In this document: positions 4,015-63,543 of the stretch, piece after piece | Layout: each line of letters starts with the position of its first letter | How positions within the stretch are numbered: position 1 is the first letter of the stretch | NCBI RefSeq assembly: GCF_004364155.1 | Contig: NZ_SOAZ01000007.1 | Coordinates: forward strand, 65,167-129,166 | DNA length: 64,000 bases | Direction of reading: 5' to 3' | Origin: Fonticella tunisiensis | GTDB lineage: Bacteria > Bacillota > Clostridia > Clostridiales > Caloramatoraceae | The notes under the pieces: generated by a model | The model's database searches: none | Told to the model about the DNA's origin: nothing | The model's input: only the letters and a program-made list of their open reading frames with translations | Program-made: the position numbers and the translations under genes

Positions 4015-4029
4015 ACTCTCCCTCCTTCC

Positions 4030-5133: not shown

Positions 5134-5136
5134 TTC

Positions 5137-6012: not shown

Positions 6013-6023
6013 TTTTACACCCC

Positions 6024-7130
6024 TTACAAAGAAAAAATTATATCCTTATTTTCCCTTAAGTATGATTCTTTAAAATATCTGTAGTAAAGATCAGGAAGGC
6101 TATAAATGTCTTTTAGATTTTCTACTACACTTATTGCTGCCATCCCTTCCTCTAGTCCTTCCTTTGATGTAATCACAATTCCAGAAGCTACTTCGTTAAT
6201 AGGTAAAGTAATACTTGTTGCATTTAACATGTTTGCTATTTTAACCATGTATTTTCCCGATTTATTCTGAACTGATTTTGCAAAACTTCCTAAAGTTCCA
6301 AATACTGAATCTCCAAGTCCAAGGATATCTATAGGTCCTTCACACGTTATGACCATATCATAGGCTTTAAAAATTTCATTCATTCTTTCTATTGAATTCT
6401 CTCTATTCTCAAAATCGGGAAACTCTTCTTCCCCGATGGTTATTTTCATATCCATTAACTTACTTAGTACAAGGTCTAATTTTTCCCTCATGTCCTTTCC
6501 GTCAGGTAAAGTAATTTCTCCTTTTTTGCATATGCAAACCTTTATATTTTCAAAGCGTATAACTTTTTCTTTAACATCAAGCATTGTAAAAATACTCTCT
6601 TTAGCCAGCTCAAAGGAATGGCTTATTACCCCAATACCTGGAACAAACTTTATTCCATCTGTAGATACTCTGTCTATACTGCCTTTAAGCCCCATACCCT
6701 TTGCCATAATGGAACAGAGATTTAAACTAAGTGCAGGTGCAAGAACCGAACCTCCTCCATCTGTTCCTATTCCTATATCATTGATACCATATAATACGTT
6801 TAATGCAGTTGCACTTGAAGAACCTGTCATAGGCCTTAGGGTTAGAGGATTTATTAATCTGTCATCTACTGCCCTTCCCCCTTCTGACATAAAATCTATT
6901 GTATGCCAAACGTATTTTCCTTTATCTATCAGCCTTTTTATATATTTTTTATTAATTTGGCCTGTATTTTTAATTCCTATCGTAATTACCGTATCATGTT
7001 TCATTAAAATATCTTTAACTTCAAGTAATGCATCTTCATTCAACTTTTCAACTGTTTTTTCTAAAAGCTTTGATGCCTTAATTGAGCCTTTTGCTACCTT
7101 TAAAAACTGATTTAATTTATACTCGTACAC
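6024..7130 (-). CDS. Compact amidase-signature (AS) family-like protein
   Basis: 368 aa. TGSSSATAL followed ~24 aa later by GIGTDGGGSVLAPA mirrors the AS core GGSSGG...GTDIGGSIRIPA (cis-Ser and nucleophile Ser). Not part of the E. coli yhf cluster. Confidence 0.5.
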   Translation of the reverse strand: MYEYKLNQFLKVAKGSIKASKLLEKTVEKLNEDALLEVKDILMKHDTVITIGIKNTGQINKKYIKRLIDKGKYVWHTIDFMSEGGRAVDDRLINPLTLRPMTGSSSATALNVLYGINDIGIGTDGGGSVLAPALSLNLCSIMAKGMGLKGSIDRVSTDGIKFVPGIGVISHSFELAKESIFTMLDVKEKVIRFENIKVCICKKGEITLPDGKDMREKLDLVLSKLMDMKITIGEEEFPDFENRENSIERMNEIFKAYDMVITCEGPIDILGLGDSVFGTLGSFAKSVQNKSGKYMVKIANMLNATSITLPINEVASGIVITSKEGLEEGMAAISVVENLKDIYSLPDLYYRYFKESYLRENKDIIFSL

Positions 7131-7191
7131 CTTCCTGCCTCCTAAATAAGTGCTGTTTTTAATTTAAAATGGAGGCTGAAAGCCTCCATTT

Positions 7192-8496
7192 TTATTTAGC
7201 TGCTGGTGGTAAATATAATCCAATAATATAAAGTACATTTATCATGACTCCAACAAGAATTGCCCCTATTGGGCCTACAGCCATGTTTACAATAGGCTTT
7301 TTTGAGCTTTGATTTAATACATATAATCCACCTACTACGAAGAAGCCAAGTCCTGGTGCCATAGCATTTGCTGCCATCATACCACCCACAAGTAATGCAA
7401 CTTCAAGAAGCTTGGACATTGCTGTTCTTATATTGTCTCCACACTTTCTTACTCCAGGGAACTTGTCCAACAACTTGGCAAGCTGGTCAAGAAGCAATAC
7501 TTCAACCACTATTACCGCTGCACCTAGCAGGGCTGCAAGAAGTAAATTCTTGGAAAGTATTCCCACTACGAATACAAAGGTCATTCCTACAGGTCCATAT
7601 ACACCTGTTGCAATAGCTGTCGTTGCAACAAGTGGAATAAATCCTATACCTCTAGCAAAAGCAGTAAGTGCCGCTTCTACATTCTTTCCATTTGCTAAAA
7701 GATTCTGGGAAATTGGGTCCCCTGCAAGTATGGACTGGCTTGTAGCTGCAGCAACAAGCGCTCCTATCAGCGCAAGATATGGAATATTTTTCCTTATCTT
7801 TTTAACTCTTTCGCTAAATAACGCTGTTAAATCAATTGAAACGGCATTTGGATCTGTTTTTTCACTTGCAGCAAATATTATCATGACAATCATACCGGCA
7901 AGCAGTGCCATTCCTTCAGGGTTGAAAGTAACTTTTGCTGTTCCTACGTTAAACTTCCCATAGTACTGCACAAATTGCCTTACTAGAAATGAGATGATAA
8001 GGGTTAATGCTCCCTTTTTAACTCCATACTGATATCCAACAACAAGCGCAGGGAATGCTGCAAAGGCTGCAACGATTGGAGTACCGACCTGTCCAAGCTG
8101 AGACAAGAAATTTACAGGAAGTTTACCAAATGCATCAACAATAAATTTTAATCCATAAAGAAGACCTAAACTGTAAACTGCACCAACAATACCTGAAATT
8201 ATAAGTCCCTTTTTGCCCTCTGGTGCCCAAGTACCAATAATATCTGTTCCAAGTAAAATACTGTGAATCAAGATAATTGTTGCTGTAATGGACATAGGAA
8301 TTCCAAAACCAATAACTAGTCCAAAACCTAATGCAAAGCTTGTTACTGCAAGAGCCTTTTTATCCATTCTACCTTCAAGATATTCGGGAACTATAGGCCT
8401 TAAACCGTCGTTAAATACTGCAACCCCCTTGTTAGCTAGAATTGATGCTAGTACACCAATTAAGGTAACCAATAAATATTTCAATACTTCATTCAT
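7192..8496 (-). CDS. yhfT: Polytopic inner-membrane protein of the YhfT family (putative transporter)
   Basis: 434 aa, identical in length to E. coli YhfT. About 12 predicted hydrophobic helices. Confidence 0.65.
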   Translation of the reverse strand: MNEVLKYLLVTLIGVLASILANKGVAVFNDGLRPIVPEYLEGRMDKKALAVTSFALGFGLVIGFGIPMSITATIILIHSILLGTDIIGTWAPEGKKGLIISGIVGAVYSLGLLYGLKFIVDAFGKLPVNFLSQLGQVGTPIVAAFAAFPALVVGYQYGVKKGALTLIISFLVRQFVQYYGKFNVGTAKVTFNPEGMALLAGMIVMIIFAASEKTDPNAVSIDLTALFSERVKKIRKNIPYLALIGALVAAATSQSILAGDPISQNLLANGKNVEAALTAFARGIGFIPLVATTAIATGVYGPVGMTFVFVVGILSKNLLLAALLGAAVIVVEVLLLDQLAKLLDKFPGVRKCGDNIRTAMSKLLEVALLVGGMMAANAMAPGLGFFVVGGLYVLNQSSKKPIVNMAVGPIGAILVGVMINVLYIIGLYLPPAAK

Positions 8497-8522
8497 AAAT
8501 TATCCCCCTTAGAAGAATTATT

Positions 8523-8882
8523 TTATTTAAGTATTTCATTCATAATAACAGGTATTACCTGATCCATGTGCTGTGGTGTAAAACCAAATGCTTTCTTACC
8601 ACTTTTTACCTCATTTATTATTTCTTCATTGCTTCTTATTTTTCCAGGCATTGAAACAGTTGCGCACAGTCCCATTCCAAGAAGTGCTATTGCCATAGCT
8701 AATGCACCGCCCCCTCCCGTATTGCATGCCCCGAAATAATAATCTGCCTGATTAGTCTTTATTGCCATTGCTGCCTCTATGTCGGACTTTACAGTTACTG
8801 AAACATTATCACCTCCTATTTTTCTAATAAGTTCTGCTACTTTCTCCTTTTCTATCTGTCCGCCAACAACAATTCTAAGCAT
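8523..8882 (-). CDS. yhfU: DUF2620 protein (YhfU family)
   Basis: 119 aa against E. coli YhfU at 117 aa. Cluster position between yhfT and the PRD protein. Confidence 0.6.
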   Translation of the reverse strand: MLRIVVGGQIEKEKVAELIRKIGGDNVSVTVKSDIEAAMAIKTNQADYYFGACNTGGGGALAMAIALLGMGLCATVSMPGKIRSNEEIINEVKSGKKAFGFTPQHMDQVIPVIMNEILK

Positions 8883-8971
8883 TTTGCCTCCCCCTTTATA
8901 AATTTCTATTTTTTAAACTTTTTAGGAACAACTTATAATATAATTTATGAGAGCTAATTAGCCTACATTAA

Positions 8972-9358
8972 CTAATATTTGCATGTGTTATTAAATTGTA
9001 TATTTTCACTTTCGAATAAAACGCAAAGGTGCATCATTATAAATGTTTTTTCACTTTCAGGAATTTCTATATTTAGTTCTTTTTCAAGCAGCTCAAGAAA
9101 TTTTTCACTACTTGTAAACCTGCTGCTGTTTTTTATTTCTTCATATATGGTATCGTTAATATCTTCCACCATCTCACCTTTTTTAATTCTTTCAAAAGCA
9201 ATAGCGAGATGTGTTATGAACATTGCTCCATTTTCTTCAGTAAGTTTTATGTTTAATTCTCTTTCAAAGATTTCAATAACCTTTATGATTGCATCATAAT
9301 TTTCCAGGCTAATCTGGTCTGCATCCTTTAGTATTTGCAACCTAATATTTAAATCCAT
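8972..9358 (-). CDS. yhfY: Small PRD-domain protein (YhfY family)
   Basis: Start at MDLNIRLQ is preceded by an AGGAGGA RBS. The ORF-track ATG at 9379 lacks an RBS. About 128 aa against E. coli YhfY at 120 aa. Confidence 0.5.
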   Translation of the reverse strand: MDLNIRLQILKDADQISLENYDAIIKVIEIFERELNIKLTEENGAMFITHLAIAFERIKKGEMVEDINDTIYEEIKNSSRFTSSEKFLELLEKELNIEIPESEKTFIMMHLCVLFESENIQFNNTCKY

Positions 9359-9405
9359 GCCTATCCTCCTAATGTACATTATTTTGTATATTTAATTTAA
9401 AAAAA

Positions 9406-10332
9406 TTAGTAGTTTGGAATAAGCTCACCTCTTACCACTTTTCTTTGATATTCTAATACTTCTTCGCTATTAATAAATTGCTCAAATATTTTCTTAATTC
9501 CATAGTTATTTTTATTAACTACGATAACTGCTTCTGTATCTTCTCCATTAAAGTCATTATTTTTTAAAGGATAATGTTTGATATCCAGTTTTCTTTCCAC
9601 AATCTCATCTATATTCCATATGGCTGCATCAATTTCTCCTGTAGTAAGTTTCAATATTAACTGGCTATATGATAAATCGATAAGGTTTACTTTCTTACCC
9701 TTGCACTGCTCCAAAGTAAGAAGATAATGATCAATGGAACTTTTATCTATTCCTACTTTCATCCCATCTTTAATAGTGTTATCATTTGAATCTGAGAATA
9801 TAATTACATGCTCATTAACATAGCTGTATTTTCCGAACTCCACTGCTATATCAACTTCTACTCCATTTTTTATACTATAAAGGGCAGCTAGTTTTGAAAC
9901 TATGGCAAAATCATATCTTCCATCTTTTAAAGCTCTAATTCTAGTTTCTGCTCCCCTCATATAAGCTATGCTGAAGGGGAATTTTTTATGGCTGGCTACT
10001 TTGTATAATCCTGTAGCTAAACCTTCATAGAGCTTCGAGTATGGCAAGGGCATAACGCCTGTAATTGTTCCAAAATCAGTAAACTCCCAGAGTATTTCAT
10101 AGTCTATACTGCTTATGAAAGTCCCTAAGTGTCCCCTTGGTTCAAGCCTAATAGCTTTATATTCTTCAAGAAGCTTTATTGCAGACTGCACTGTTCCCCT
10201 TGCCGTTTTATATTTATAGGAATATTCCGCAATAGTGCTAATACGGTCCCCAACATTCATTGTTATGAATTCCCTTGCTAGTTTCATAGCAACAAGACCA
10301 TTTTTTTGTAGTAATTGTGTTTTAATGCTCAT
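9406..10332 (-). CDS. yhfZ: YhfZ-family transcriptional regulator (N-terminal GntR-like HTH plus C-terminal periplasmic-binding-like domain)
   Basis: 308 aa against E. coli YhfZ at 301 aa. HTH region ISTIAEYSYKYKTARGTVQSAIKLLEE. First gene of the cluster. AAGGTGA RBS. Confidence 0.6.
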   Translation of the reverse strand: MSIKTQLLQKNGLVAMKLAREFITMNVGDRISTIAEYSYKYKTARGTVQSAIKLLEEYKAIRLEPRGHLGTFISSIDYEILWEFTDFGTITGVMPLPYSKLYEGLATGLYKVASHKKFPFSIAYMRGAETRIRALKDGRYDFAIVSKLAALYSIKNGVEVDIAVEFGKYSYVNEHVIIFSDSNDNTIKDGMKVGIDKSSIDHYLLTLEQCKGKKVNLIDLSYSQLILKLTTGEIDAAIWNIDEIVERKLDIKHYPLKNNDFNGEDTEAVIVVNKNNYGIKKIFEQFINSEEVLEYQRKVVRGELIPNY

Positions 10333-12352: not shown

Positions 12353-13006
12353 TCAAAACGAGTTAAATTAGCAAATTTCTTATTCCTAACATCTGATAGT
12401 GCCTTTACATTTCAACCATTCTAAATGATTCTGGTAGGAATAGGTTTTAAAGCCGCTATAAGTTTATATCTCAACATTAAGCTAGTAACAATAATAAATT
12501 AAACCTATCCTTTTATGTCAATTGTTCATAAATATTGGTAAAATACAATTTTTAATGTATTTTGAAGAAATCATAAGAATTATAGCTTATATTGTGTTTT
12601 TTAATTAATTTTTTGTCTTGACTTTACAAGAGCATAAATTTATGTTATCATTCTTAATAACAATTATTCATTATCTTCTAAAACTCAATATCTTTCAGAG
12701 TTAGCATTTTATGCTTTCTTTTAAACAAGTCTTTAATTTTATCTATCTTTCAACTTTAAGCCAATTGGTTTTAAGATCGATCTTATTGAAACTCTGTGGG
12801 ATCATTTCATTATTCACAAATGATTATTAGAATCTGTCTTAATGAATTCAGACCTAAATTTTACCTGTTATAAAAGGCTTGTTTCATTAACTTTCCTATT
12901 AAAAGTCTGTTTCTCATGTGCTGCCTTTACTTCTTTCAATTTCTATGGGATCCCCTTTCATAAGCTCTTTTAAGGCAGTAAATTGCTATTTAAAGGAGGT
13001 AGATCA

Positions 13007-14134
13007 ATGATAGAATTCAAGAATGTAAAAAAATCCTTTAAAAACAATGAAATCCTTAAAGGAATTAACCTTAAAATCAATAAGGGTGAGCTTGTTGTAC
13101 TCATTGGACCCAGTGGATGTGGTAAGACAACTACACTTAAGATGATAAATAAACTTATAAATCCTACATCTGGAAAAATACTCATAAACGGAAAAGACAT
13201 AGCTAACGAAGATACAATAGAACTTAGAAGAAACATAGGATATGTAATTCAGCAGACAGGTCTCTTTCCTCATATGACAGTTAGAGAAAACATTGGTCTT
13301 GTTCCTTACCTAAAGAAATGGCCAGAGGACAAGATTAGGAAAAGAACCATTGAACTTTTAGAACTTGTTGGACTAAAGCCCGATGAGTATATTGATAGAT
13401 ACCCCGGCGAACTTAGTGGTGGACAACAGCAAAGGATCGGCATTGCACGAGCATTTGCGGCAGACCCTGAAATAATCCTAATGGACGAGCCTTTCAGTGC
13501 CCTTGACCCTATAACAAGAAACCAGCTTCAGGACGAATTATTTAATCTGCAGAATGAGCTTAAAAAGACAATAATTTTTGTTACCCATGATATAGACGAA
13601 GCTCTAAAGCTTGGAAATAGAATATGCATTATGAAGGATGGAAATATACTTCAATTCGATACTCCTGAGAACATTCTAAAGAATCCTGCCCATGGATTTG
13701 TTGAGGAATTCGTAGGAAAGAAAAGGATCTGGAATCAGCCAGAACTTATAAAAGCAAAGGATATTATGATAGAGGATCCTATAAAGACTACTGGAAAAAG
13801 AACTGTTTTTCAGGGAATTGAAATGATGACATCAAATCAAGTTAACAGTCTTATGATTGTAAACAAAGATGGGAAACTTGAAGGAATAGTAACATTGAAG
13901 GATATCAGAAAGTCTCAGGATAACAACTTAAAGCTTGAAGATATAATGGAACAAAATATAATATCAGTTAATGTTAATGATTCCATAGTAAACATATTGG
14001 AAAAAATGAATGAAAATAATGTAGGATATATTCCAGTTACAGATAGTGAAATGAGACTTGTTGGCCTTATTACAAGAAGCAGCTTATTAACTGTCCTCAG
14101 CAGGCAGTTCCTTGATGAGGAGGTGGCTAATTAA
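13007..14134 (+). CDS. Glycine betaine/carnitine/choline ABC transporter ATP-binding protein with tandem CBS domains (OpuCA/OpuAA type)
   Basis: Walker A GPSGCGKTT, LSGGQQQR signature and a C-terminal CBS pair. AGGAGG RBS 7 nt before the ATG at 13007. Confidence 0.8.
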   Translation: MIEFKNVKKSFKNNEILKGINLKINKGELVVLIGPSGCGKTTTLKMINKLINPTSGKILINGKDIANEDTIELRRNIGYVIQQTGLFPHMTVRENIGLVPYLKKWPEDKIRKRTIELLELVGLKPDEYIDRYPGELSGGQQQRIGIARAFAADPEIILMDEPFSALDPITRNQLQDELFNLQNELKKTIIFVTHDIDEALKLGNRICIMKDGNILQFDTPENILKNPAHGFVEEFVGKKRIWNQPELIKAKDIMIEDPIKTTGKRTVFQGIEMMTSNQVNSLMIVNKDGKLEGIVTLKDIRKSQDNNLKLEDIMEQNIISVNVNDSIVNILEKMNENNVGYIPVTDSEMRLVGLITRSSLLTVLSRQFLDEEVAN

Positions 14135-15708
14135 TGCTAAAAGAGTTTTTAGATTTTGTATTAAGTAGACAGGATCAAATATTAAAATTGTTATCTGAGC
14201 ATATCACGTTAACTATATTCGCCGTATTACTTTCAATACTCATAGGCATTCCACTCGGTATATTAATAACAAGAATTAAGAAGCTTTCAGGACCTGTAAT
14301 AGGAGCTGCAAACATAGTACAAGCAATTCCAAGCCTTGCCCTTTTAGGTTTCCTTATTCCGTTTCTTGGAATAGGAAGCAAACCTGCAATAGTTATGGTA
14401 TTTCTTTATTCTTTGCTTCCTATTATTAAAAATACCTACACAGGCCTTACAAACATAAATCCTGACATGCTTGAAGCCTCAAGGGCAATGGGAATGACAG
14501 GCAGCCAGATCTTAAGAATGGTTCAGCTTCCACTAGCACTTCCTATTATCATGACGGGCATAAGAATATCTGCAGTTACAGCGGTGGGACTTATGACAAT
14601 CGCTGCCTTCGTTGGAGCAGGGGGACTAGGATACATGGTATTTTCAGGTGTGCAAACAGTTAATAACTATATGATTTTAGCTGGCGCTATTCCTGCATGT
14701 ATACTTGCCCTTTTAATGGACTTTATTATTGGAAAGGTTGAAGGTGTTGTAACACCCCAGGGAATCAAAACAGGAGACAGATATTCAAAGACTAAAAAAA
14801 GCAGTCACATACCAAAAAAGGTTAGCGCTGCTATTGCAGGAGGGTTGGCAATCATTCTAATTGCTGGAATTTTGACATCCATTGGTGGTAAAAAGGATAC
14901 CATAGTAATAGGTTCGAAGGACTTCAATGAACAGCTCATACTTGGAAATATGATGGCTATACTCATCGAGGAAAACACTGATTTAAAGGTTGAGAAAAAA
15001 TTAAATTTGGGCGGTACAAACGTTGTATTTAGCGCTTTAAAAACAGGAGATGTCGATTTATATGTTGAATATACAGGTACAGGCCTAGTTAACATTATGC
15101 AGCATGATGTTGTAAACGATCCTGATGAGGCATATAACATTGTAAAGGAATATTTTGATAAAAACTACAACCTTAAATGGCTAAAGCCCCTCGGATTTAA
15201 CAACACATATACCCTGGCAGTTACAAAGGAAACAGCTAAAAAGTATAGCCTTGAAACCTTCTCAGATCTTGCAAAAGTTAGCGATAAGCTTATTTTAGGT
15301 TCTACAATAGAATTCTCTACCAGACCTGATGGGTATCCTGGATTAAAAGAAGCCTATAACATGAATTTTGGTGATGTTAAAGCTGTAAATGGAGGTCTTA
15401 GATATACAGCAATCAACAGCGGTAAATCACATGTTATAGACGCCTTTGCAACAGATGGGCTATTGAAGGCCTTTGACCTTAAAGTTCTAAAGGATGACAA
15501 ACAGTTCTTCCCACCATACTTTGCAGCTCCACTTGTTAGAAAGGACACTCTAAATAAACATCCTGAAATTGAGGGAATTTTAAATAAACTTTCAGGGCTT
15601 ATAAACGATGATGTTATGAGGGATCTTAACTACAGAGTAGATAAGCTAAATGAAAAACCTGAAGATGTGGCAAGGAATTTCCTGAAGGAAAAAGGATTAA
15701 TTAAATAA
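14134..15708 (+). CDS. Fused ABC permease plus substrate-binding domain of an OpuC/OpuB-type compatible-solute importer
   Basis: N-terminal half carries the permease EAA-like region. C-terminal ~300 aa is an OpuAC-like binding domain. TAATG start/stop overlap with the ATPase gene. Confidence 0.75.
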   Translation: MLKEFLDFVLSRQDQILKLLSEHITLTIFAVLLSILIGIPLGILITRIKKLSGPVIGAANIVQAIPSLALLGFLIPFLGIGSKPAIVMVFLYSLLPIIKNTYTGLTNINPDMLEASRAMGMTGSQILRMVQLPLALPIIMTGIRISAVTAVGLMTIAAFVGAGGLGYMVFSGVQTVNNYMILAGAIPACILALLMDFIIGKVEGVVTPQGIKTGDRYSKTKKSSHIPKKVSAAIAGGLAIILIAGILTSIGGKKDTIVIGSKDFNEQLILGNMMAILIEENTDLKVEKKLNLGGTNVVFSALKTGDVDLYVEYTGTGLVNIMQHDVVNDPDEAYNIVKEYFDKNYNLKWLKPLGFNNTYTLAVTKETAKKYSLETFSDLAKVSDKLILGSTIEFSTRPDGYPGLKEAYNMNFGDVKAVNGGLRYTAINSGKSHVIDAFATDGLLKAFDLKVLKDDKQFFPPYFAAPLVRKDTLNKHPEIEGILNKLSGLINDDVMRDLNYRVDKLNEKPEDVARNFLKEKGLIK

Positions 15709-15735
15709 CAAAATTAAATTATTAAGAATTTATTA

Positions 15736-15782
15736 AGGAGAGCATACATCGTTTTGTGTAAATACATCTATGTATGCTCTCT
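15736..15782. terminator. Bidirectional terminator between opuC and the GH13 gene
   Basis: Hairpin gagagcatacat...atgtatgctctc followed by a T-run. Confidence 0.6.
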
Positions 15783-15795
15783 TTATTATAGTTAC

Positions 15796-17496
15796 TTAAT
15801 TCTTTATCCACACAAATTCATATGGTGCTAAAGCCAGCTCTCCATCTATCTTTCTTCCTGTTAAAATGTCTTCTCCTTTGAAGTTTCCATTTATTTTTAC
15901 TTCCCTTGAGTCCACATTAACAACAAATGTTATTCTTTCTACCGTTTCTTTGTCTTCCCTCTCAAGGGCAAATACCTTATTACCTAAATCAAGAACCCTC
16001 TGGGGAGCATATGGTGAAAAGGGGCTTTCCTTCTTTCGTAGGTTTATCATTTTTTTCAAGCCGTTAAATATTGCCTTCCTTCTTTCATCAGTTTCAAGCT
16101 CAAAAGCTATGCGGTTATACTCCAGTTTTTCACGGTTGATTCTACGGTTTATGCCTGATTTTTCTAATCCTTCATAGTCATTTCTTGATCCTAAAAGTGA
16201 ATGATAATATATTGCTGGAACCCCTATTAATGATAATAGTATGGAATGGGCAGCAAGCATCTTTCTTACCTGTAATTCTAAGGTAGTGTCCTCATTCTTG
16301 TTTATCAGAGCATCCTGATAGTTTATGTTAAGTTCATATATTGACTGGCTTCCATCGGTGTTGGTTTTATAGGATACACGTCCACCATTTTCTATAACCT
16401 TATCAATAAGTAATTTCTTTTCTTCCTCTGTTAATATTCCCTCAGTTGGGCGCATTCCTATTCCATCATGACTTGCTAAGAAGTTAAAATAGGTAGCCTC
16501 ATCTGAGACTTTGCTTATGGTTTTTGACCACTCTGTAAGCTTTGAAGAATTATGGGTTGTTAGGGTAAATAATACAAGGGGCGGCAGTGAAAACTGATAC
16601 ACCATATGAGCTTCATTTTTACCATCTCCAAAATAACTTATGTTCTCCTTATGAGGCACATTTGTTTCAGTTATTATCTGGGTATTCCTCTTGAAATAAT
16701 CAAGTAAACCTCTCCACAGCTGGATTACAGCATGGGTTTGAGGAAGATGCATACATGTTGTACCTGATTCCTTCCAGAGGAAACCTATGGCATCCAAACG
16801 GATACTTGTTGCACCTCTATGGGCATACGTAAGTATTATGTCCGTCATCTCTAAAAGTACAGGAAAATGGCGGAAATTAAGATCCACCTGATCCTCGCTA
16901 AAAGTAGTCCAGGCTGTTTTTACTCCATTTTTTCCTTTATATTCATGGAAAAGCGGAGAGATCCTGGGACGAATAACCTTGCTTGTATCAAAATTTTCAT
17001 CGTATGGAATAAAATATTCCTTATATTTTTCATCATCATTTAAATAGCCCTTAAACCACTCACTGCTTTTTGAAATGTGGTTTGCAACAAAATCAAACAT
17101 CAATCTGTAATCCTTAGATAAGCTCTCAATATCCTCCCAGTCTCCTAAATCTTCATTTATTTTTCTATAATCAACAACTGAAAATCCATCATCGGAGGTG
17201 TATTCAAACATTGGAAGAAGATGAACATCAGTTATTACATCACCTACATAATTTTTTAGAAATTTGTGTAAGGTTTTTAAAGTTGGCATTCCCTTTTCAT
17301 AAATGCTGTCCCCATAGGTAATTAAGTAGACATTCTCCTGTGAAACAGGAAGGGCCCTATCCCAATTTGTTTCTTCCCATTTGCTTATCAGTAAATTCAT
17401 TTCGTCCAGGTAGCTTTGTTTATATTCTTCTCCGTAAATGAGCTTTAGCTTATCTTCAATTAGCCTAATAAGTTTATTTTTATCCACATCCTTCAC
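15796..17496 (-). CDS. GH13 subfamily-18 glycoside phosphorylase (sucrose phosphorylase family; specificity unknown)
   Basis: 566 aa. Sucrose-phosphorylase-like N-terminus (ITYGDS...LPMFEY..DDGFSVVDY) and the GH13 catalytic region. 4-nt overlap with mngB. Confidence 0.7.
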   Translation of the reverse strand: MKDVDKNKLIRLIEDKLKLIYGEEYKQSYLDEMNLLISKWEETNWDRALPVSQENVYLITYGDSIYEKGMPTLKTLHKFLKNYVGDVITDVHLLPMFEYTSDDGFSVVDYRKINEDLGDWEDIESLSKDYRLMFDFVANHISKSSEWFKGYLNDDEKYKEYFIPYDENFDTSKVIRPRISPLFHEYKGKNGVKTAWTTFSEDQVDLNFRHFPVLLEMTDIILTYAHRGATSIRLDAIGFLWKESGTTCMHLPQTHAVIQLWRGLLDYFKRNTQIITETNVPHKENISYFGDGKNEAHMVYQFSLPPLVLFTLTTHNSSKLTEWSKTISKVSDEATYFNFLASHDGIGMRPTEGILTEEEKKLLIDKVIENGGRVSYKTNTDGSQSIYELNINYQDALINKNEDTTLELQVRKMLAAHSILLSLIGVPAIYYHSLLGSRNDYEGLEKSGINRRINREKLEYNRIAFELETDERRKAIFNGLKKMINLRKKESPFSPYAPQRVLDLGNKVFALEREDKETVERITFVVNVDSREVKINGNFKGEDILTGRKIDGELALAPYEFVWIKN

Positions 17497-20150
17497 TCCT
17501 TTATCTTAAGAGTCACATAACCCTTTGGTGGAATTTCAACTCTATCCTTGACGGCTTCTTTTTCATCCTCATAAAGATTTGTTTTAACTATTTTCTTTAT
17601 TTTATCCCCATGAATAGCTACAGATTCAATAGTATCCGAAGGATTAAATAAACGTAGAATTACTCCGTCCCCTTCATAGGCCAGCTTACATGTACTCATA
17701 AACACCCTGTCATTATCCACATGGAATAACGAATAGTTTCCTGGAAGACCTTCTTTGTGCATTGGTATTTCAAATCTCTCCAGTCGTTCTTCAAAGGTAT
17801 TTAAGTTTTGTTTCTGGTATGATGCATAGTGTTCAATGTATTTTTCAGTTATTCTAAATAATGCTTGCGGATTAAACCTTTCATCACTAAAATATACTGC
17901 ATATTCAAATTCTAGTTTTTTCATCATCTGAGCGTCAGGTGTATAAACCACCTTATTATTTATACCCGATGCACGGCCAGGCCTCCACAATAAGTCATCC
18001 TTTCCAAGGACCCCAACACTTCTAAATAGAGTCAATGCCAGTTGGCCGTTTTCTAAAGCTTCATACTCCTTTATTCCCTTTGTAATAAGTGCAAAGGTTG
18101 ATCTTTCATCACTCAATGCCGCAAAGTTTTCTAAGGAATATATTGGTACCGGAGCCTCTGCAAACTTCCTTTCCCTCCAGTCCTTCAAATAGGGATTGAT
18201 AGTGCTGTGCTTTATTGCACTGAAGCCCTGATCGGCATAGGAATACTCAGGATTTATTATTGGAGTTTTAAATAAAACCCTAAGTCTGTGGTCCTTTATA
18301 TTGTTATTAACTACGTGCTTAACCCTTATAAACTCCTCTTCCCTTCTAAGTTCAAGGATTGTTAATACTTCAAATTCAGTGGTTCTTTCCTCTGTCTTTC
18401 TTTCCTCCAGATCCTTAGACAATACAGCCCTGTGTACCATTACCATCCTCTCTGCAATGGAGCCCTTTTCCACCTTTAAAAGATGTGAATCCTTAATTAT
18501 TAATGGCTCATCACCCTTAAGTGGTGAAAAGTCATAGGAATCTCCATCATCTGCTGCATCTTCAAAGGTCATAAAGTCTTCAATCCTTTGCCCTGACTTT
18601 TTATGAATTAATATCAATTTGCCCTCATTAAATACAACTTCATAATATTTATTTGTTATTGTATTTTCTCCCTTTTCCTTCAAGATAGCTTCTTTGTTTT
18701 CTCCCTCTTCCTTTATTATGAGGGTCGTGTATCCCATAGGCGGAATATTATTCATCTCCATATTGATAACAGAGCGATAATATCCAGGAAGCTCTATTTC
18801 CTTTTCTCCTTCTGCAGTTACAACTATCTGTTTTCCTCCACTTAAGTATGACTGATTAACTATATCAAAGGCTATATTCTTTCCATCCAGAGTTTCAATG
18901 GAGAATCGAGGCTCCTTAGTGAATATAACACTTTCTATGATTTCCTTTATAGCTAAAGGCTTTGTATTAAATACCACAAGTATATTATCCTTATTGATAT
19001 TTTTACTTATGGCATAGGTTAACTGCTTTTTTAATATGTTTAGCAGTCCATCTGCGATGTTATTTACCTTTGTCAAGCGGTCAATGATATTTCTGTTTGT
19101 GTCATCTGAGTTGCATCCAGCTATGCTGTCATGAGCATGGGCGTCAAACATCATCTTCCACATATTATCAAGCCATGCCTTTGGATATTTCAATCCAAGG
19201 CTTCTTCCTATTACTGCCAGCGGCTCAAGGACACAAAGGATTTTATTTTCGACTAAATTGTTTAATTTCTTGATATCGTATCTCTGTGAACGGATAGTAT
19301 TGTGAATTCTGGATTTTTGCGGAGCTATCAGCTCACCTTCTATTTCATTATTAAACCTTCCTTCCTCATTCCATGTTTCCTTCATGAATGTTTCATAATC
19401 GGAAAGAAGGAATTCATAATCTTCTTCCCTTTTATTTAGTTCCTTTATAATTTCCGGAAAAGCTTCACGTACAAGTACCTGATCTCCACCCGCTGGAAGG
19501 AGCAGGTTGTCCGTACTCTTATTCATGGCTGAAAGCTTCTTAAGAATTGGGAGAAGCTTTTCAGTTACATATTCAGTTTGGGAGGAGAGAAATTTCCCCG
19601 GCCCATAACCTAAGAATATGTTGTTTGCCTTCACTTTCTCTCCATCCGGTGATTTCCATATAAAGTTTAGATCTCCATTTAACTGGTCTGTATAGATACC
19701 TCTCTGAAGTATACTGTATTCTATGTCAAATCCTTTGAATATGGATGGTAAATAGGCATTCTGTCCAAATATATCAGGTAAATAACCTACCTCCATGCAG
19801 TGTCCCATTGCTTTTCCGATTCTTGTTCCATATAGCAGATTCCTTATGATGGATTCTTTATTTACCAATAAGGAGTCAGTTTGTGTGTACCACGGTCCGA
19901 CAAATATACGCTTATCCCTAATTAGCCTCTTTAATCTTTCCTCTTCCTCCGGACAAATTTTCAAGAATTCTTCTACAATAGATAACTGTCCATCGAAGAC
20001 ATATCCAGTATATTCTTCATTGCTCTCCAGCACATCCATTAAATGTAGGAGGTTTTCGCAAAGAAGAACATTTGAATCCTCTATTGTAAAATACCATTCT
20101 CTATCCCAGTGGGAATGTGGTACAACATAAACTTTTTTTACCTGATTCAT
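17493..20150 (-). CDS. mngB: GH38 alpha-mannosidase, mannosylglycerate hydrolase MngB-like
   Basis: 885 aa. N-terminus VVPHSHWDREWYF...GPWYTQTDSLLV...IRNLLYG closely parallels E. coli MngB. Confidence 0.8.
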   Translation of the reverse strand: MNQVKKVYVVPHSHWDREWYFTIEDSNVLLCENLLHLMDVLESNEEYTGYVFDGQLSIVEEFLKICPEEEERLKRLIRDKRIFVGPWYTQTDSLLVNKESIIRNLLYGTRIGKAMGHCMEVGYLPDIFGQNAYLPSIFKGFDIEYSILQRGIYTDQLNGDLNFIWKSPDGEKVKANNIFLGYGPGKFLSSQTEYVTEKLLPILKKLSAMNKSTDNLLLPAGGDQVLVREAFPEIIKELNKREEDYEFLLSDYETFMKETWNEEGRFNNEIEGELIAPQKSRIHNTIRSQRYDIKKLNNLVENKILCVLEPLAVIGRSLGLKYPKAWLDNMWKMMFDAHAHDSIAGCNSDDTNRNIIDRLTKVNNIADGLLNILKKQLTYAISKNINKDNILVVFNTKPLAIKEIIESVIFTKEPRFSIETLDGKNIAFDIVNQSYLSGGKQIVVTAEGEKEIELPGYYRSVINMEMNNIPPMGYTTLIIKEEGENKEAILKEKGENTITNKYYEVVFNEGKLILIHKKSGQRIEDFMTFEDAADDGDSYDFSPLKGDEPLIIKDSHLLKVEKGSIAERMVMVHRAVLSKDLEERKTEERTTEFEVLTILELRREEEFIRVKHVVNNNIKDHRLRVLFKTPIINPEYSYADQGFSAIKHSTINPYLKDWRERKFAEAPVPIYSLENFAALSDERSTFALITKGIKEYEALENGQLALTLFRSVGVLGKDDLLWRPGRASGINNKVVYTPDAQMMKKLEFEYAVYFSDERFNPQALFRITEKYIEHYASYQKQNLNTFEERLERFEIPMHKEGLPGNYSLFHVDNDRVFMSTCKLAYEGDGVILRLFNPSDTIESVAIHGDKIKKIVKTNLYEDEKEAVKDRVEIPPKGYVTLKIKE

Positions 20151-20191
20151 TTTTTACCTCCATTAAGCTGCGTTTCTTTTTTTGTTTATTT

Positions 20192-22147
20192 CTACTTTTC
20201 ATTTTCCCTTCTTTTTAACATTACAAATCTAATAAATATATTGGCAAATGCTATAAATAGCGTACCAACTAAAAGTCCTACAATGTATGCCCACAGATTT
20301 TCAACCAATGGCCATCCCCATACTGCGGGAAGCGGAAACCACTGAACTGCCCCTAATGAAACTGCTGTAATTGATCCAAGTATTGCACCAAGTATATTTA
20401 TTGGTATTGTTATAAGCGGGTTTCTAAGCATAAATGGTATAGCACCTTCGCTTATAGCAATAAGTCCAAGTAATATGGATGTTCTACCTGCTATTCTCAA
20501 GTCTTCATCAAATACATGGCGTCCAACTACATATTTATCTAAAACAGTTGCTAAACCTAATCCTATTGGTGGTATAACTATTGAAAGTACACGTGGAGTT
20601 AACGGGAATATTTTATCTGCAGCAAGTCCTATTGCAATGGCACCTGCCGCCTTATTTATTGGACCTCCAAGGTCAAATGCTGTTGCTGCTGCAATTATCG
20701 CTGATAAACCAAGTGTTCCTGCAGCTTGTGCTTGCTTTATTAAATTTCTGAGTGTTAAGTTTAATCCTCCAAATACAGGGTCAACAATATAGAAATTTAA
20801 TAGGAATATTGAAAGTACACTTATTCCTGGTATTATGAGCATCGGTTTCATTGCGCTTAAGTTCTTTGAAAGCTTTATCCTTTCATTCAGGAATCTTGAA
20901 ATATATCCTGCTGCAAGCCCTAATATAAGTGCTCCAAAGAATCCTGATGGTATACCATCCTTAACTCCCCAGAAGGTGAAATGAAGTCCTGCTGCAAATG
21001 CACCTCCGATAAGCCCTGAAACAATACCTACACGGTCAGCTATAGCATAAGCAACATAGGCTGAGAAAATTGGATACATGAATTTAAAGATCATTCCACC
21101 AAAGGCATCAAGAAAGTGTAATATCTTTATAAGTTCATTCGGGCTGGCCGCATACTTTGCATCTCCAATTTCCTTTACTATTCCAAATGCCATTGCTCCA
21201 AGCTTACCAATACCTATCATAAGACCGGCGGCTACTATTACTGGAATCATATAGGATATGCCTGTAAGAACTGCCTGGGACATTTCTGAAAGAATTCCGC
21301 CCTTTTTCGTACCACTTTCTGCTATAACTTCTTCCTTCTCCTCAACAATTCCATCGGGATTAGTTAGAACCTTATTTATCAGTGCCTTTGCATTCTTCAG
21401 AGGTTCTGCAACCTTTGTTCTTACATAGGGTTTTCCATTGAATCTTTCTACTTTTTTTGGTGCTATGTCAGTTGCAAAGATAACTCCATCTGCCTTTTCT
21501 ATTAATTCCTTTGTATGCGCATTTTCTATTCCATTTGCTCCCTGTTTTTCAACAATCACTCTAACTCCCATTTCCTTTCCTGCCTTTTCTAAGGCTTCAG
21601 CTGCCATATAAGTATGGGCTATACCTGCTGCACAGGCTGTAATTGCAAGAACAGTTTTAGAGTACTTAAGCCCTTCTTCCTTTCTTTCGTTATTATAATC
21701 AAGGGCTTCTATAAATTCCTTTGCATTTTTGGCTTTCCTTAATCTGTTTACAAAATCCTTATTCATTAATGCTGTGGAAAGCTCTGCAAGAAGCTTTAGA
21801 TGTGTTGACCCTGCCTCTTCCTCTGGAATTGCAAGCAGGAATACAAGCTCTACTTGATTATTTTGGCTTATACTTTCCCATGCTGATATTTTATTCTTCA
21901 AACGTGCAACTCCAAAAGCAGCTCTTTTTACAGCCTTTGATTTACCATGGGGAATTGCAAGTCCATCCTCAAGGCCTGTAGGTGAATGCTTTTCCCTCTC
22001 CATAACAGCCTTTAAAAATTCTTCCTTTGATGTAATGAAGTTTTCTTTATAAAGAGCATGTACAATTTTTTCAATAACTTCTTCCTTTGAAGAAGCTTCT
22101 AGATCTAAAAGAATGAGTTCTTCCTTTGTCATTCTCTGAAGATTCAT
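20192..22147 (-). CDS. mngA: PTS fructose-family EIIA-EIIB-EIIC permease, MngA-like
   Basis: 651 aa. EIIA His site LAIPHGKS, EIIB Cys site ITACAAGIAHT and a C-terminal EIIC membrane domain. Sits immediately upstream of mngB. Confidence 0.7.
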   Translation of the reverse strand: MNLQRMTKEELILLDLEASSKEEVIEKIVHALYKENFITSKEEFLKAVMEREKHSPTGLEDGLAIPHGKSKAVKRAAFGVARLKNKISAWESISQNNQVELVFLLAIPEEEAGSTHLKLLAELSTALMNKDFVNRLRKAKNAKEFIEALDYNNERKEEGLKYSKTVLAITACAAGIAHTYMAAEALEKAGKEMGVRVIVEKQGANGIENAHTKELIEKADGVIFATDIAPKKVERFNGKPYVRTKVAEPLKNAKALINKVLTNPDGIVEEKEEVIAESGTKKGGILSEMSQAVLTGISYMIPVIVAAGLMIGIGKLGAMAFGIVKEIGDAKYAASPNELIKILHFLDAFGGMIFKFMYPIFSAYVAYAIADRVGIVSGLIGGAFAAGLHFTFWGVKDGIPSGFFGALILGLAAGYISRFLNERIKLSKNLSAMKPMLIIPGISVLSIFLLNFYIVDPVFGGLNLTLRNLIKQAQAAGTLGLSAIIAAATAFDLGGPINKAAGAIAIGLAADKIFPLTPRVLSIVIPPIGLGLATVLDKYVVGRHVFDEDLRIAGRTSILLGLIAISEGAIPFMLRNPLITIPINILGAILGSITAVSLGAVQWFPLPAVWGWPLVENLWAYIVGLLVGTLFIAFANIFIRFVMLKRRENEK

Positions 22148-22319
22148 TTTGATACTCCTTTCTACCTATTTGAATTTTAAGACTCTTCAAAAGCCTCTCA
22201 ATTATTTTATAGCATAAACGAATTAAAAATATTTATACATTCAGCGTACAATTTTACTTTTTATCGATTTTTGCTATAATCATTAATGATATTGTAACTC
22301 AAAAGGAGCAAGCAGTATT

Positions 22320-23078
22320 ATGAGTAAACTATTAAATCGTTTTGCTAATGACCTTCCTAAACTTAGCCATGCAGAAAAACATGTATTTTATTATATTGAA
22401 AGCAATATTGAAGAGGCTAAAAAGCAATCTCTTACAGAGATGGCTGAAGTAAATAATGTAAGCACTACTACTATCGTCCGCATGTGCAATAAATTGGGAC
22501 TTTCCGGTTTTTCTGAATTAAAGTATATATTAAAAGATATAGAACAAAATAATGTTTCTTCTGAAAGTAGTTTGTTAGACAACATAAAAAATAATATAAA
22601 CCTCACTCTATCAAACTTAAACATCGAAACTCTACATTCTCTTATAAGACTTATGATAAGCTCTAAAAAGATTGTAGTTGTAGCCGTAGGGCTTTCAAAA
22701 ACTATAGGAGAATATTTTTCCAAACTTTTAATGCAGATAAACAAAAACACACTATACGTTTATGAATCCCACATAATAGACCTTCTTCCAGGGATGATGA
22801 ATTGGGATGATCTGGTTATCTTTATATCCAACAGTGGAGAAACAAAGACATTACTTTCAATAGCTGAAAAGCTAAGCTATCGAAACTATAAAACTGCCGC
22901 AATTGTGAATGCTGCTGACTCTACACTTTCAAGGCATGTTACATTGTCCATAAATGCACATTCCAACAAAAGCGAATATAGAGGATACGACATTACTCCA
23001 AGATCTACACTGCTTTTACTTATAGATATAATTTTCGGTATGTTCTTAGAGGCTAAAAACAAAAATAAACAAAAATAA
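22320..23078 (+). CDS. RpiR/MurR-family transcriptional regulator (HTH_6 plus SIS domain)
   Basis: 252 aa. N-terminal HTH and C-terminal SIS sugar-phosphate-binding domain. Divergent from mngA. Confidence 0.7.
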   Translation: MSKLLNRFANDLPKLSHAEKHVFYYIESNIEEAKKQSLTEMAEVNNVSTTTIVRMCNKLGLSGFSELKYILKDIEQNNVSSESSLLDNIKNNINLTLSNLNIETLHSLIRLMISSKKIVVVAVGLSKTIGEYFSKLLMQINKNTLYVYESHIIDLLPGMMNWDDLVIFISNSGETKTLLSIAEKLSYRNYKTAAIVNAADSTLSRHVTLSINAHSNKSEYRGYDITPRSTLLLLIDIIFGMFLEAKNKNKQK

Positions 23079-23103: not shown

Positions 23104-23142
23104 GCTGTCATTTTGATGGCTGCCATCAAAATGACAGTTATA
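23104..23142 (+). terminator. Intrinsic terminator after the rpiR-family gene
   Basis: Perfect hairpin ctgtcattttgatggc / gccatcaaaatgacag. Confidence 0.6.
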
Positions 23143-23423: not shown

Positions 23424-23882
23424 TTCACAAAAGGTAAATTATTTAATAAGTAACATATAATTATTATAAACTCAAAAAAAGCCTAAGCATTTTTTTTACA
23501 ATAATATGTTAAATAAATAACATAAAGTATGTAATTTTTTAAAATCAAATCGTTAATTATGGACAAATATAAATGCGTAAAGGTATTTATCCAATCTTAG
23601 GGGGGTAAATTTCCTTGTGATAAAATACTATTATTAAAATTTGTTATACAACTTCCATCTACTTCAGATAGAATGCTTTTTTCCAATTGAAGAAATTGAT
23701 TTATTGCCATATACAGGGATTAAGCCTGCATTAGTTCCTACTTCCTGTGAAAAAATATACGACTTTTATTTAACACAAGTAAAGGTTTATGCTGGTTTTT
23801 ATTGTTACTAATATCACAAATCAGATTTTTATTTTTAAATAACTATAATAATTTATTTAAATTCAGAAGGGAGAGATTTTCA

Positions 23883-24941
23883 ATGAAGGGTTTTGCAATG
23901 CTTGGTATTGGTAAGGTAGGTTGGATAGAAAAAGAAAAACCTACTCCTGGACCATTTGATGCCATTGTTCGTCCACTGGCAGTAGCACCATGCACCTCAG
24001 ATATTCATACAGTATTTGAAGGAGCCATTGGTGAAAGACATGATATGATTTTAGGCCATGAGGCAGTAGGAGAAGTAGTTGAAGTTGGTAGTGAAGTAAA
24101 GGATTTTAAACCAGGAGATAGGGTAATTGTTCCAGCCATAACACCCTCCTGGAGAACACTTGAAGTTCAACGCAATTATCATCAGCATTCGGAAGGAATG
24201 TTAGCAGGTTGGAAATTCTCAAATATAAAAGATGGTGTATTTGGTGAATTTTTTCACGTAAATGATGCAGATATGAATCTTGCACATTTACCGGAAGGAA
24301 TTTCTTTGGAAGCAGCTGTCATGCTAACCGATATGATGACTACAGGCTTCCATGGAGCAGAATTAGCAGAAATCGAATTGGGTTACTCTGTTGCAGTTTT
24401 GGGTATAGGAGCTGTAGGCTTGATGGCTGTTGCTGGTGCAAGGCTAAGGGGTGCCAGCAGAATAATAGTTGTAGGCAGCAGACCAGTTTGTGTTGAGGTT
24501 GCAAAGGAATATGGTGCTACAGATGTTGTAAATTATAAAAACGGCCCAATTGATGAGCAAATCATAGAATTAACAAACGGCGAAGGCGTAGATGCTGCTA
24601 TTATTGCTGGAGGTGATTCAGACATATTAGCTAGTGCAGTTAAAATAACAAAACCTGGCGGTAATATATCCAATATAAATTATTTTGGCTCTGGAGAAGT
24701 ATTGCCAGTTCCAAGACTTGAATGGGGTTGTGGTATGGCCCACAAGACCATCAGGGGAGGACTATGCCCAGGTGGAAGATTAAGAATGGAAAAGTTAGCA
24801 AACCTCGTTAAATATAAACGTGTTGATCCTTCCAAACTTGTTACTCATGTTTTCCATGGTTTTGAAAATATTGAAAAGGCTCTAATGCTTATGAAGGACA
24901 AGCCAAAGGATCTTATAAAACCTGTAGTTTTAATAGATTAG
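23883..24941 (+). CDS. adh: NADP-dependent secondary-alcohol (isopropanol) dehydrogenase, zinc MDR family
   Basis: Near-identical over its length to my recollection of the T. brockii / C. beijerinckii enzyme (MKGFAMLGIGKVGWIEKEKP...GHEAVGEVVEVGSEV...). RBS before the ATG at 23883. Confidence 0.85.
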   Translation: MKGFAMLGIGKVGWIEKEKPTPGPFDAIVRPLAVAPCTSDIHTVFEGAIGERHDMILGHEAVGEVVEVGSEVKDFKPGDRVIVPAITPSWRTLEVQRNYHQHSEGMLAGWKFSNIKDGVFGEFFHVNDADMNLAHLPEGISLEAAVMLTDMMTTGFHGAELAEIELGYSVAVLGIGAVGLMAVAGARLRGASRIIVVGSRPVCVEVAKEYGATDVVNYKNGPIDEQIIELTNGEGVDAAIIAGGDSDILASAVKITKPGGNISNINYFGSGEVLPVPRLEWGCGMAHKTIRGGLCPGGRLRMEKLANLVKYKRVDPSKLVTHVFHGFENIEKALMLMKDKPKDLIKPVVLID

Positions 24942-35400: not shown

Positions 35401-35401
35401 T

Positions 35402-36613: not shown

Positions 36614-36630
36614 TTAGTTCACCTCACATT

Positions 36631-37281: not shown

Positions 37282-37303
37282 ATCAATTAACCTCCTTAGA
37301 AAT

Positions 37304-38395: not shown

Positions 38396-38399
38396 AATC

Positions 38400-63444: not shown

Positions 63445-63521
63445 TGGCTCCATGGAGAGGACTCGAACCTCCAACCCTCCGGTTAACAGCCGGATGCTCC
63501 ACCATTGAGCTACCATGGAAC
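63445..63521 (-). tRNA. tRNA-Asn (GTT)
   Basis: Reverse complement GTTCCATGGTAGCTCAATGGTGGAGCATCCGGCTGTTAACCGGAGGGTTGGAGGTTCGAGTCCTCTCCATGGAGCCA. Anticodon loop CTGTTAA and T-loop GGTTCGAGTCC. Confidence 0.7.
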
Positions 63522-63543
63522 GATAAAGATTTATTCAATTGAA

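Follow-up and report, generated by a model that had tools for sequence, protein, structure and literature searches.

What links a glycoside phosphorylase to a mannoside-type sugar transporter? The question is raised by a 64-kb stretch of the Fonticella tunisiensis genome (the window, that is, the whole stretch analyzed), in which a minus-strand operon joins the genes for a phosphotransferase system (PTS) transporter, a hydrolase of glycoside hydrolase family 38 (GH38), and a phosphorylase of family 13 (GH13), with a regulator gene on the far side of a divergent control region. This cassette was studied with a listing of open reading frames (ORFs) and with Pfam and NCBIfam profile scans, and it was compared with related genome and metagenome loci, which carry L-numbers as labels (e.g., L068 and L102). 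In our reading, to which we give about an even chance, the cassette is a conserved operon of Bacillota for the catabolism of a glucosylglycerate with an alpha-mannosyl cap, the likeliest substrate being mannosylglucosylglycerate (MGG). The three minus-strand ORFs described in a first-pass annotation of this DNA were all present, with the positions and domain content given there. In the order of the window, the cassette consists of the following elements, where GGaP stands for glucosylglycerate phosphorylase.

15738..15781, minus strand: terminator-type hairpin closing the operon (12-bp stem; RNA fold)
15796..17487 (longest ORF to 17496), minus strand: retaining phosphorylase of GH13_18, placed by sequence in the GGaP clade (EC 2.4.1.352); alpha-amylase catalytic domain; 563 aa annotated versus 566 aa for the ORF
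17493..20150, minus strand: GH38 alpha-mannosidase-type hydrolase, 885 aa; Pfam GH38 N, middle, C, and C2 domains
20192..22147, minus strand: fructose-family PTS EIIABC, 651 aa; Pfam EIIA_2, IIB, and EIIC in A-B-C order
22148..22319, no strand assigned: divergent control region with promoter-like sites and a degenerate TGTACA-repeat copy
22320..23078, plus strand: RpiR/MurR-family transcriptional regulator, 252 aa, divergent from the operon; Pfam HTH_6 (61 bits, N terminal) and SIS (66 bits, C terminal)

The GH13 protein groups with glucosylglycerate phosphorylases

Over its full length, the GH13 protein of the window is 41% identical to Escherichia coli YcjM (phmmer, 475.8 bits; BLAST, 455 bits), and the alignment takes in an N-terminal extension of about 50 residues. 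YcjM has been characterized as a strict glucosylglycerate phosphorylase (characterization listed in PMC8950772). Among solved structures, the best matches of the window protein are GH13_18 phosphorylases, namely, sucrose phosphorylase (SP), sucrose-6F-phosphate phosphorylase (SPP), and glucosylglycerol phosphorylase (GGoP), at only 145 to 176 bits, and with these structures YcjM does not exceed 197 bits. Since YcjM and the window protein are equally far from the solved structures, they appear to form a common clade in which no structure has been solved.

Two signatures are known for GGaPs, (T/S)ETN at beta-strand 5 and a Glu in place of Gln in loop A (PMC7178133). The window protein has both, within IITETNVPH and SIYELNINY, where the sucrose phosphorylase structure 7qqj aligns PEIH and DIYQIN. 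Motifs were counted in 81 sequences, comprising the window protein, the GH13 proteins of 79 related genome loci, and YcjM. As a result, TETN was found in 79 of the 81 sequences, while the loop-A Glu, RLDA, SHDG, DDGF, and the Glu of T-E-T/V-N were found in every one. The catalytic residues of GH13 (nucleophile Asp, acid/base Glu, and transition-state Asp) are present in the window enzyme, and its motifs DDGF, ANH(x)S, RLDA, TETN, SHDG, and RRINR are the same as in YcjM and in homologues from the ycj-like operons described below. JGI labels many homologues "glucosylglycerate phosphorylase," an enzyme that was reportedly discovered in 2017. Overall, these sequence comparisons place the window GH13 protein in the GGaP clade of GH13_18, with glucosylglycerate as its predicted specificity. 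The first-pass annotation had regarded it as a member of the sucrose-phosphorylase family other than a plain sucrose phosphorylase, a view that agrees with the similarity to YcjM, the sub-cut-off score given below, and the GGaP motifs. As to the checks that it had proposed, phylogenetic placement and an acceptor-site comparison, the similarity scores group the protein with YcjM, and the signature motifs are TETN and the loop-A Glu.

Alternatively, the gene might encode an ordinary sucrose or sucrose-6F-phosphate phosphorylase that merely lies beside a mannoside operon. Some homologues are indeed named "sucrose phosphorylase" or "sucrose 6(F)-phosphate phosphorylase" in databases, and in some Rossellomorea-type loci the cassette is flanked by scrB, a fructokinase-like ROK kinase gene, and a second PTS-like gene. 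However, the protein reaches only 220.3 bits with TIGR03852 (sucrose phosphorylase, gtfA equivalog), below the cut-off of 334.4, and it scores 476 bits with YcjM versus at most 176 bits with any solved sucrose phosphorylase. Moreover, the loop-A Gln of SP and SPP is replaced by Glu, TETN is present, and the synteny in most loci is with GH38 and glycerate kinase. A plain SP or SPP was therefore rejected on the TIGR03852 cut-off, the similarity ranking, and the motifs, and we regard this explanation as almost certainly wrong.

The transporter and the GH38 hydrolase are paralogues of MngA and MngB

The PTS and GH38 genes had been described in the first-pass annotation as the classic mannosylglycerate module, with a hydrolase strongly resembling MngB of E. 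coli. The best NCBIfam match of the PTS protein is NF007293, the MngA equivalog, but with 481.5 bits it falls below the cut-off of 763; likewise, the best match of the GH38 protein is NF007331, the MngB equivalog, with 797.6 bits versus a cut-off of 1138. The PTS protein is 35% identical to MngA and the hydrolase 32% identical to MngB over 856 residues, so that the likeness to MngB had been overstated. The EIIA His motif (IPHGK) and the EIIB Cys motif (ITACAAGIAHT) are kept in comparison with MngA, as are the GH38 motifs PHSHWDREWYF, LPDIFG, and HAHDSI in comparison with MngB. In the Protein Data Bank, the relatives of the hydrolase are the GH38 enzymes 3lvt/5kbp and 2wyh.

In Paenibacillus xerothermodurans (L068), the cassette is followed by ptsI, encoding PTS enzyme I, and then by a second rpiR-PTS-GH38 set (13586-19129). 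The proteins of this second pair are 54% and 52% identical to MngA and MngB of E. coli and pass both cut-offs (953 and 1269 bits, respectively), whereas the cassette's own PTS and GH38 proteins stay below them (462 and 756 bits). This one locus therefore holds two mannoside PTS/GH38 systems that are paralogous to each other. Similarly, metagenome contig L102 carries a 62%-identical MngB-like gene (13341-14510) at a distance of 5 kb from its cassette. Because the cassette pair scores below the cut-offs and stands beside a true MngAB in L068, we take it for a paralogue pair from which a different substrate is to be expected; on the same two grounds, its identification as classic MngAB was rejected.

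The gene set is widespread and tightly linked

In a scan of one genome per species, 551 stretches were found to encode a GH13 relative, and the best 80 loci (58 to 72% identity) were analyzed. A cassette GH38 gene lies directly upstream of the GH13 gene in 73 of the 80 loci, 72 of which show the PTS gene and 70 the divergent rpiR gene. The order rpiR<->PTS-GH38-GH13 occurs in Bacillaceae, Clostridium (including relatives of C. botulinum), Paenibacillus, Halobacillus, Alkalibacterium, Fusobacteriia, and Negativicutes. Independently, sampling of metagenomes via GH38 yielded 33 loci, of which 28 were informative in that the contig runs past the GH38 gene; GH13 is present in 24 of these. Two contigs from the human gut, L104 and L114, keep the set together in a rearranged order, GH13-glycerate kinase-PTS-GH38. 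The recurrence of the gene set is far beyond chance. As regards the two outcomes that the first-pass annotation had named as speaking against its proposal, the phosphorylase clusters apart from plain sucrose phosphorylases, and the triplet is common elsewhere.

The spacing of the genes is also close. The PTS gene has the ribosome-binding site AAAGGAG 7 nt 5' of its ATG, and it is separated by 41 nt from the GH38 gene, whose ribosome-binding site is GGAGG. The sequence of the GH38/GH13 junction is AAGGAGTGAAGGATGTGGAT. Here, the longest GH13 ORF begins at a GTG (17496-17494) that overlaps the GH38 TGA (17495-17493) as GTGA, and the ATG at 17489 is out of frame for GH13. A second GTG, at 17487, is located 9 nt after AAGGAG (17502-17497) and 5 nt after the GH38 stop. 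This appears to be the likelier start, because an identical protein (P0001, 100% identity) is publicly annotated in F. tunisiensis as 563 aa and the N termini of 20 aligned homologues fit it. The earlier description of a 566-aa gene overlapping the mngB stop through ATGA therefore holds for the 566-aa ORF and the tight juxtaposition, but the overlap is GTGA, and the likelier start does not overlap. Whichever start applies, the tight juxtaposition is a family trait, given that, in 63 of 69 related loci, no more than 30 nt separate the GH38 stop from the start of GH13.

Downstream of the GH13 gene, the terminator-type hairpin has a folding energy of -21.1 kcal/mol (z = -5.56 versus 200 shuffles) and a weak U-tract (CUUAAUAAAUUCUU). 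It was found by folding, as its loop exceeds the 8-nt limit of the consensus terminator scan, which missed it. The same hairpin is shared by a convergent opu-type betaine/choline ABC transporter on the plus strand (12983-15708, the gene end being at 15708), consisting of an ATPase with CBS domains and a fused permease/OpuAC binding protein. This neighbor is not conserved in other loci, and genes for solute uptake and for solute catabolism may thus adjoin here by coincidence.

Accessory genes agree with the expected products

Clustering of the flanking ORFs revealed that, in 38 cassette loci, a glycerate kinase gene (TIGR00045, 410 bits) of the same strand comes directly 3' of the GH13 gene. 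Genes for ManA or a ManA-like protein were found in 23 cassette loci, often adjacent. These accessory genes match mannose-6-phosphate, glycerate, and a glucose phosphate as products. Because glycerate kinase follows GH13 in 38 loci, a glycosyl-glycerate solute is the likely substrate class.

A protein of about 575 to 580 aa with no Pfam match is encoded in L096 (8643-10385) and L104 (8679-10406) and also in L103, L113, L115, L106, and L061. Its C-terminal two-thirds are 25 to 30% identical to class I mannose-6-phosphate isomerase, and its N-terminal approximately 220 aa are unassigned. The gene for this ManA-like protein lies 3' of GH38 in several loci and replaces GH13 in four, alongside a LacI-type regulator.

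The accessory genes also bear on the direction of the pathway. The cassette could in principle convert one solute into another, with GH38 freeing glycerate and GH13 running from glucose-1-phosphate and glycerate to glucosylglycerate, so that an osmoprotectant would be made. The reactions of GGaPs are reversible (PMC7178133), many hosts are halophilic or halotolerant Bacillaceae, and the opu-type compatible-solute transporter adjoins the cassette in the window. Nevertheless, catabolism is indicated by the glycerate kinase gene of 38 loci and by ManA genes close by, other loci do not share the opu neighbor, and the cassette also occurs in non-halophilic clostridia and on gut contigs, all of which makes such a conversion highly improbable.

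Homologues in ycj-like operons suggest an unphosphorylated substrate

Seven of the 80 genome loci have neither PTS nor GH38, and six of them (L013, L022, L026, L035, L045, and L078), from Bacillaceae and Paenibacillus, resemble the E. coli ycj operon. In these six, a GH65 gene encoding approximately 740 aa lies shortly upstream of GH13, and glycerate kinase often follows. In L013, whose ORFs were scanned, oxidoreductase and epimerase genes are found 5' of GH65. Judged by size and order only, an ORF of about 430 to 480 aa and two of about 290 aa in L022, L035, L045, and L078 have a layout like the binding protein and permeases of ycjNOP; judged by size only, an ORF of about 225 to 245 aa between GH65 and GH13 in L022, L045, and L078 corresponds to beta-phosphoglucomutase (YcjU). 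The GH13 proteins of the ycj-like loci are 67 to 69% identical to that of the window, and in a neighbor-joining tree, which carries no support values, they fall at at least four separate places among the cassette GH13 proteins. ABC transporters do not phosphorylate their substrates. The presence of the same GH13 type beside putative ABC-type uptake genes therefore argues that the substrate of the cassette enzyme is ordinary, unphosphorylated glucosylglycerate.

This observation touches directly on the first-pass annotation, which had suggested a phosphorolytic route for a glycosyl-glycerate solute in which the PTS delivers a 6-phosphorylated glycoside to the phosphorylase. In such a scheme, GH13 would phosphorolyze, for example, 6-phospho-glucosylglycerate to a sugar bisphosphate and glycerate, in parallel to the hydrolysis by GH38. 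The operon has no transporter besides the PTS, and GH13_18 includes sucrose-6F-phosphate phosphorylases with linked PTS genes, but in those enzymes the phosphate is carried by the leaving group and not by the glucosyl unit (PMC7178133). Every motif compared is, moreover, unchanged with respect to YcjM and to the homologues in ABC (ycj) context. We know of no GH13 enzyme that accepts a 6-phosphoglucosyl unit in its glucosyl-binding subsite. Direct phosphorolysis of a 6-phosphoglycoside is, in our opinion, improbable. Thus, the substrate class proposed earlier is retained, in view of the glycerate kinase in 38 loci, while action on a 6-phosphorylated glycoside is not, in view of the unchanged motifs and the ABC-context homologues. 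A sequential reading is simpler, in which GH38 would remove the phosphorylated mannose and GH13 would receive unphosphorylated glucosylglycerate.

A proposed route for mannosylglucosylglycerate

MGG, alpha-Man-(1->2)-alpha-Glc-(1->2)-D-glycerate, is a compatible solute known from Petrotoga and Rhodopirellula (PMC3736172). We infer the substrate, the order of the reactions, and the inducer from the gene content. EIIABC would import MGG and phosphorylate its terminal mannose at O6, as MngA does with mannosylglycerate. GH38 would then hydrolyze the 6-phosphomannosyl linkage, yielding mannose-6-phosphate and unphosphorylated 2-O-alpha-glucosylglycerate, and GH13_18 would phosphorolyze the latter to alpha-glucose-1-phosphate and D-glycerate. 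The products would enter glycolysis through ManA (mannose-6-phosphate isomerase), phosphoglucomutase, and glycerate kinase. The divergent RpiR/SIS protein would probably sense a phosphosugar intermediate and bind TGTACA repeats between the two promoters.

MGG is the simplest substrate for this gene set, because the set combines a phosphorylating importer, an enzyme predicted to remove (phospho)mannose, one predicted to split glucosylglycerate, and, frequently, a glycerate kinase. Since the PTS is the sole transporter of the cassette, glucosylglycerate is most simply made inside the cell. A precedent is found in Rhodopirellula baltica, where a GH13_18 gene annotated as "sucrose phosphorylase" lies in an operon-like cluster with mggS and mggB (PMC3736172).

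The enzymes might instead serve two solutes, the PTS and GH38 splitting mannosylglycerate as in E. coli and GH13 degrading glucosylglycerate that is imported or formed by another route, with co-regulation through the common glycerate. MngA and MngB are, after all, the best family matches of the PTS and GH38 proteins, and glycerate kinase is a downstream step that both solutes would have in common. Some relatives of the GH38/PTS pair occur without GH13 (four metagenome loci), just as GH13 is also found without the PTS in the ycj-like operons. However, the cassette has no transporter for glucosylglycerate, and the sub-cut-off paralogues coexist with genuine MngAB in L068 and L102, where they would be redundant. 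The spacing within 30 nt in 63 of 69 loci and a linkage that outlasts rearrangement (L104 and L114) fit a single pathway better. Two separate solutes are possible but, as we see it, rather unlikely.

Several points weigh against MGG catabolism as the role of the cassette. For the Bacillota clade, 41% identity to YcjM together with the motifs gives a prediction of specificity and not a proof. The sequence is silent on which hydroxyl the PTS phosphorylates and on whether GH38 accepts a glucosylglycerate aglycone, and the neighbor-joining tree of the GH13 proteins, as mentioned, has no support values. MGG has been reported from few organisms (Petrotoga and Rhodopirellula; PMC3736172), in contrast to the very wide distribution of the cassette; a different or an additional mannosyl glycoside may therefore be the true substrate. 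In four metagenome loci, a related GH38 (43 to 51% identity) is accompanied by a ManA-like gene instead of GH13, and the PTS/GH38 pair can therefore work without the phosphorylase. Finally, tblastn found no homologue of glycerate kinase or ManA in the 64-kb window; both genes probably lie elsewhere in the Fonticella genome.

Regulator and control region

The regulator had been described as an RpiR/SIS protein rather than a GntR-type MngR, and the HTH_6 and SIS domains bear this out. No significant homologue of E. coli MngR was found at the cassettes, and of 73 cassette loci, 70 have an RpiR homologue (36 to 63% identity) that is likewise placed divergently. In L068, the true MngAB pair has an RpiR regulator as well, so that this choice of regulator is a Bacillota habit and not peculiar to the cassette. 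The SIS domain of the RpiR family is a phosphosugar-binding module.

In the control region, a promoter-like site was assigned on the minus strand, TTGAGA-16-TAAAAT (22201..22174), and another on the plus strand, toward rpiR, TTTACT-16-TG-TATAAT (22253-22280). The promoter scan returned 29 sites versus 27 expected from shuffles, which is not above chance, and these assignments rest on position. Of 86 rpiR-PTS intergenic regions, 64 contain the 7-mer TGTACAA, the usual conserved form being TGTACAAwTGTACA-N5-TGTACAA, 60 to 100 nt 5' of the PTS start. In the window, a degenerate copy of the TGTACA repeat (22233-22257) overlaps the -35-like hexamer of the candidate rpiR promoter. The more distant loci, namely, L077, L095, L097, L098, L100, L102, and L105, lack the repeat. 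Overall, the TGTACA repeats are a plausible candidate for the operator of the cassette RpiR protein. No cre site was found in the promoter region, and the sole match in the window, at 46130, is within chance expectation.

Downstream of rpiR, 27 nt after its stop, a palindromic hairpin with a perfect 15-bp stem and a T-run is located at 23105-23137. This hairpin probably terminates rpiR and insulates it from the gene for a Zn-dependent alcohol dehydrogenase at 23802-24941.

Other features of the window

A complete yhf-type cluster occupies 1640-10332 on the minus strand, with the following genes.

9406-10332, minus strand: YhfZ-like regulator
7192-8496, minus strand: YhfT membrane protein
6024-7130, minus strand: ORF with no Pfam match
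5137-6012, minus strand: phosphotriesterase-homology protein
4030-5133, minus strand: YhfS-like PLP enzyme
2851-4014, minus strand: YhfX-like PLP enzyme
1640-2854, minus strand: metalloenzyme-superfamily mutase-like protein

An FMN riboswitch (113 bits; 38500-38615, minus strand) is found immediately upstream of ORFs (34939-38515) that presumably form a riboflavin biosynthesis operon. Toward the end of the window, a tRNA is located at 63448-63519. A pair of 5S rRNA matches stands in tandem on the minus strand (63543-63658 and 63670-63786), behind the 3' end of a 23S gene at 63906-64000. Of these matches, one is strong (105.5 bits), and the other barely reaches the gathering score (38.7 bits), corresponding to a divergent or decaying second copy.

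Significance and comparison with known systems

Many bacteria that are not regarded as accumulators of glucosylglycerate have a putative gene for GGaP, and the role of the enzyme in vivo has not been experimentally confirmed (PMC7178133). If our reading of the cassette is true, it offers a concrete answer for Bacillota, with the GGaP catalyzing the last glycoside-cleaving step in a PTS-driven scavenging of a mannose-glucose-glycerate solute from other organisms. It would also supply a catabolic pathway for MGG, give bacterial GH38 enzymes and fructose-family PTS transporters a new substrate specificity, and correct the common annotation of these proteins as "mannosylglycerate" PTS/hydrolase and as "sucrose phosphorylase" or "alpha-amylase." Both enzyme families, the MngAB paradigm, and the GGaP labels that databases give to homologues are already known; as the components come from known families, the gain would be incremental, with no change of category. 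In the searchable full-text literature, we found neither a cassette of the type PTS-GH38-GGaP(-glycerate kinase) nor an MGG catabolic route described, though an earlier mention is possible. That this is the first catabolic pathway for MGG or a related mannosyl-capped glucosylglycerate, and that the hydrolase, unlike MngB, has a specificity new to GH38, for 6-phospho-alpha-mannosyl-glucosylglycerate, is put forward tentatively, at slightly less than even chance.

The cassette resembles the mngR-mngA-mngB system of E. coli in its architecture of a fructose-family EIIABC fusion, a full-length GH38 behind it, and a divergent regulator, with the EIIA His, the EIIB Cys, and the GH38 motifs kept. It differs in its RpiR/SIS regulator in place of the GntR-type MngR, in the addition of a GGaP and often a glycerate kinase, and in sequence, the identities being 35% and 32%. 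Operons with sucrose-6F-phosphate phosphorylase, such as those of Thermoanaerobacterium thermosaccharolyticum and Ruminococcus gnavus, likewise link a GH13_18 phosphorylase to a PTS (PMC7178133). In those systems, what the PTS delivers is the direct substrate of the phosphorylase, and the fructose leaving group bears the phosphate, whereas the cassette has a GH38 step in between and a phosphorylase with GGaP rather than SPP motifs. The mggS-mggB-spase cluster of R. baltica also ties a GH13_18 gene to MGG genes, as we propose for the cassette, but it is biosynthetic, belongs to a producer of the solute, and has neither PTS nor GH38, and its phosphorylase was not shown to be active there (PMC3736172).

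The closest counterparts of the phosphorylase itself are the GGaPs of E. coli (YcjM), Meiothermus silvanus, and Spirochaeta thermophila, with which it shares full-length homology, the N-terminal extension of about 50 aa, both signatures, and frequent company of a glycerate kinase. These characterized enzymes are accompanied either by GH65 together with an ABC transporter (ycj) or by genes for glucosylglycerate synthesis, while the cassette enzyme has the PTS and GH38 as its partners. In the ycj-like operons of Bacillaceae and Paenibacillus, the GH13 proteins are interleaved with those of the cassettes and a glycerate kinase often comes next, as in the cassette, but putative ABC-type uptake and beta-phosphoglucomutase genes, GH65, and oxidoreductase/epimerase genes stand where the cassette has PTS and GH38. 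The GGaP gene is the last in these operons and the first in E. coli ycj. By analogy, this arrangement suggests a parallel logic, in which GH65 would remove a cap, here an alpha-1,2-linked sugar, before phosphorolysis, with a glucosyl-capped glucosylglycerate as the putative substrate.

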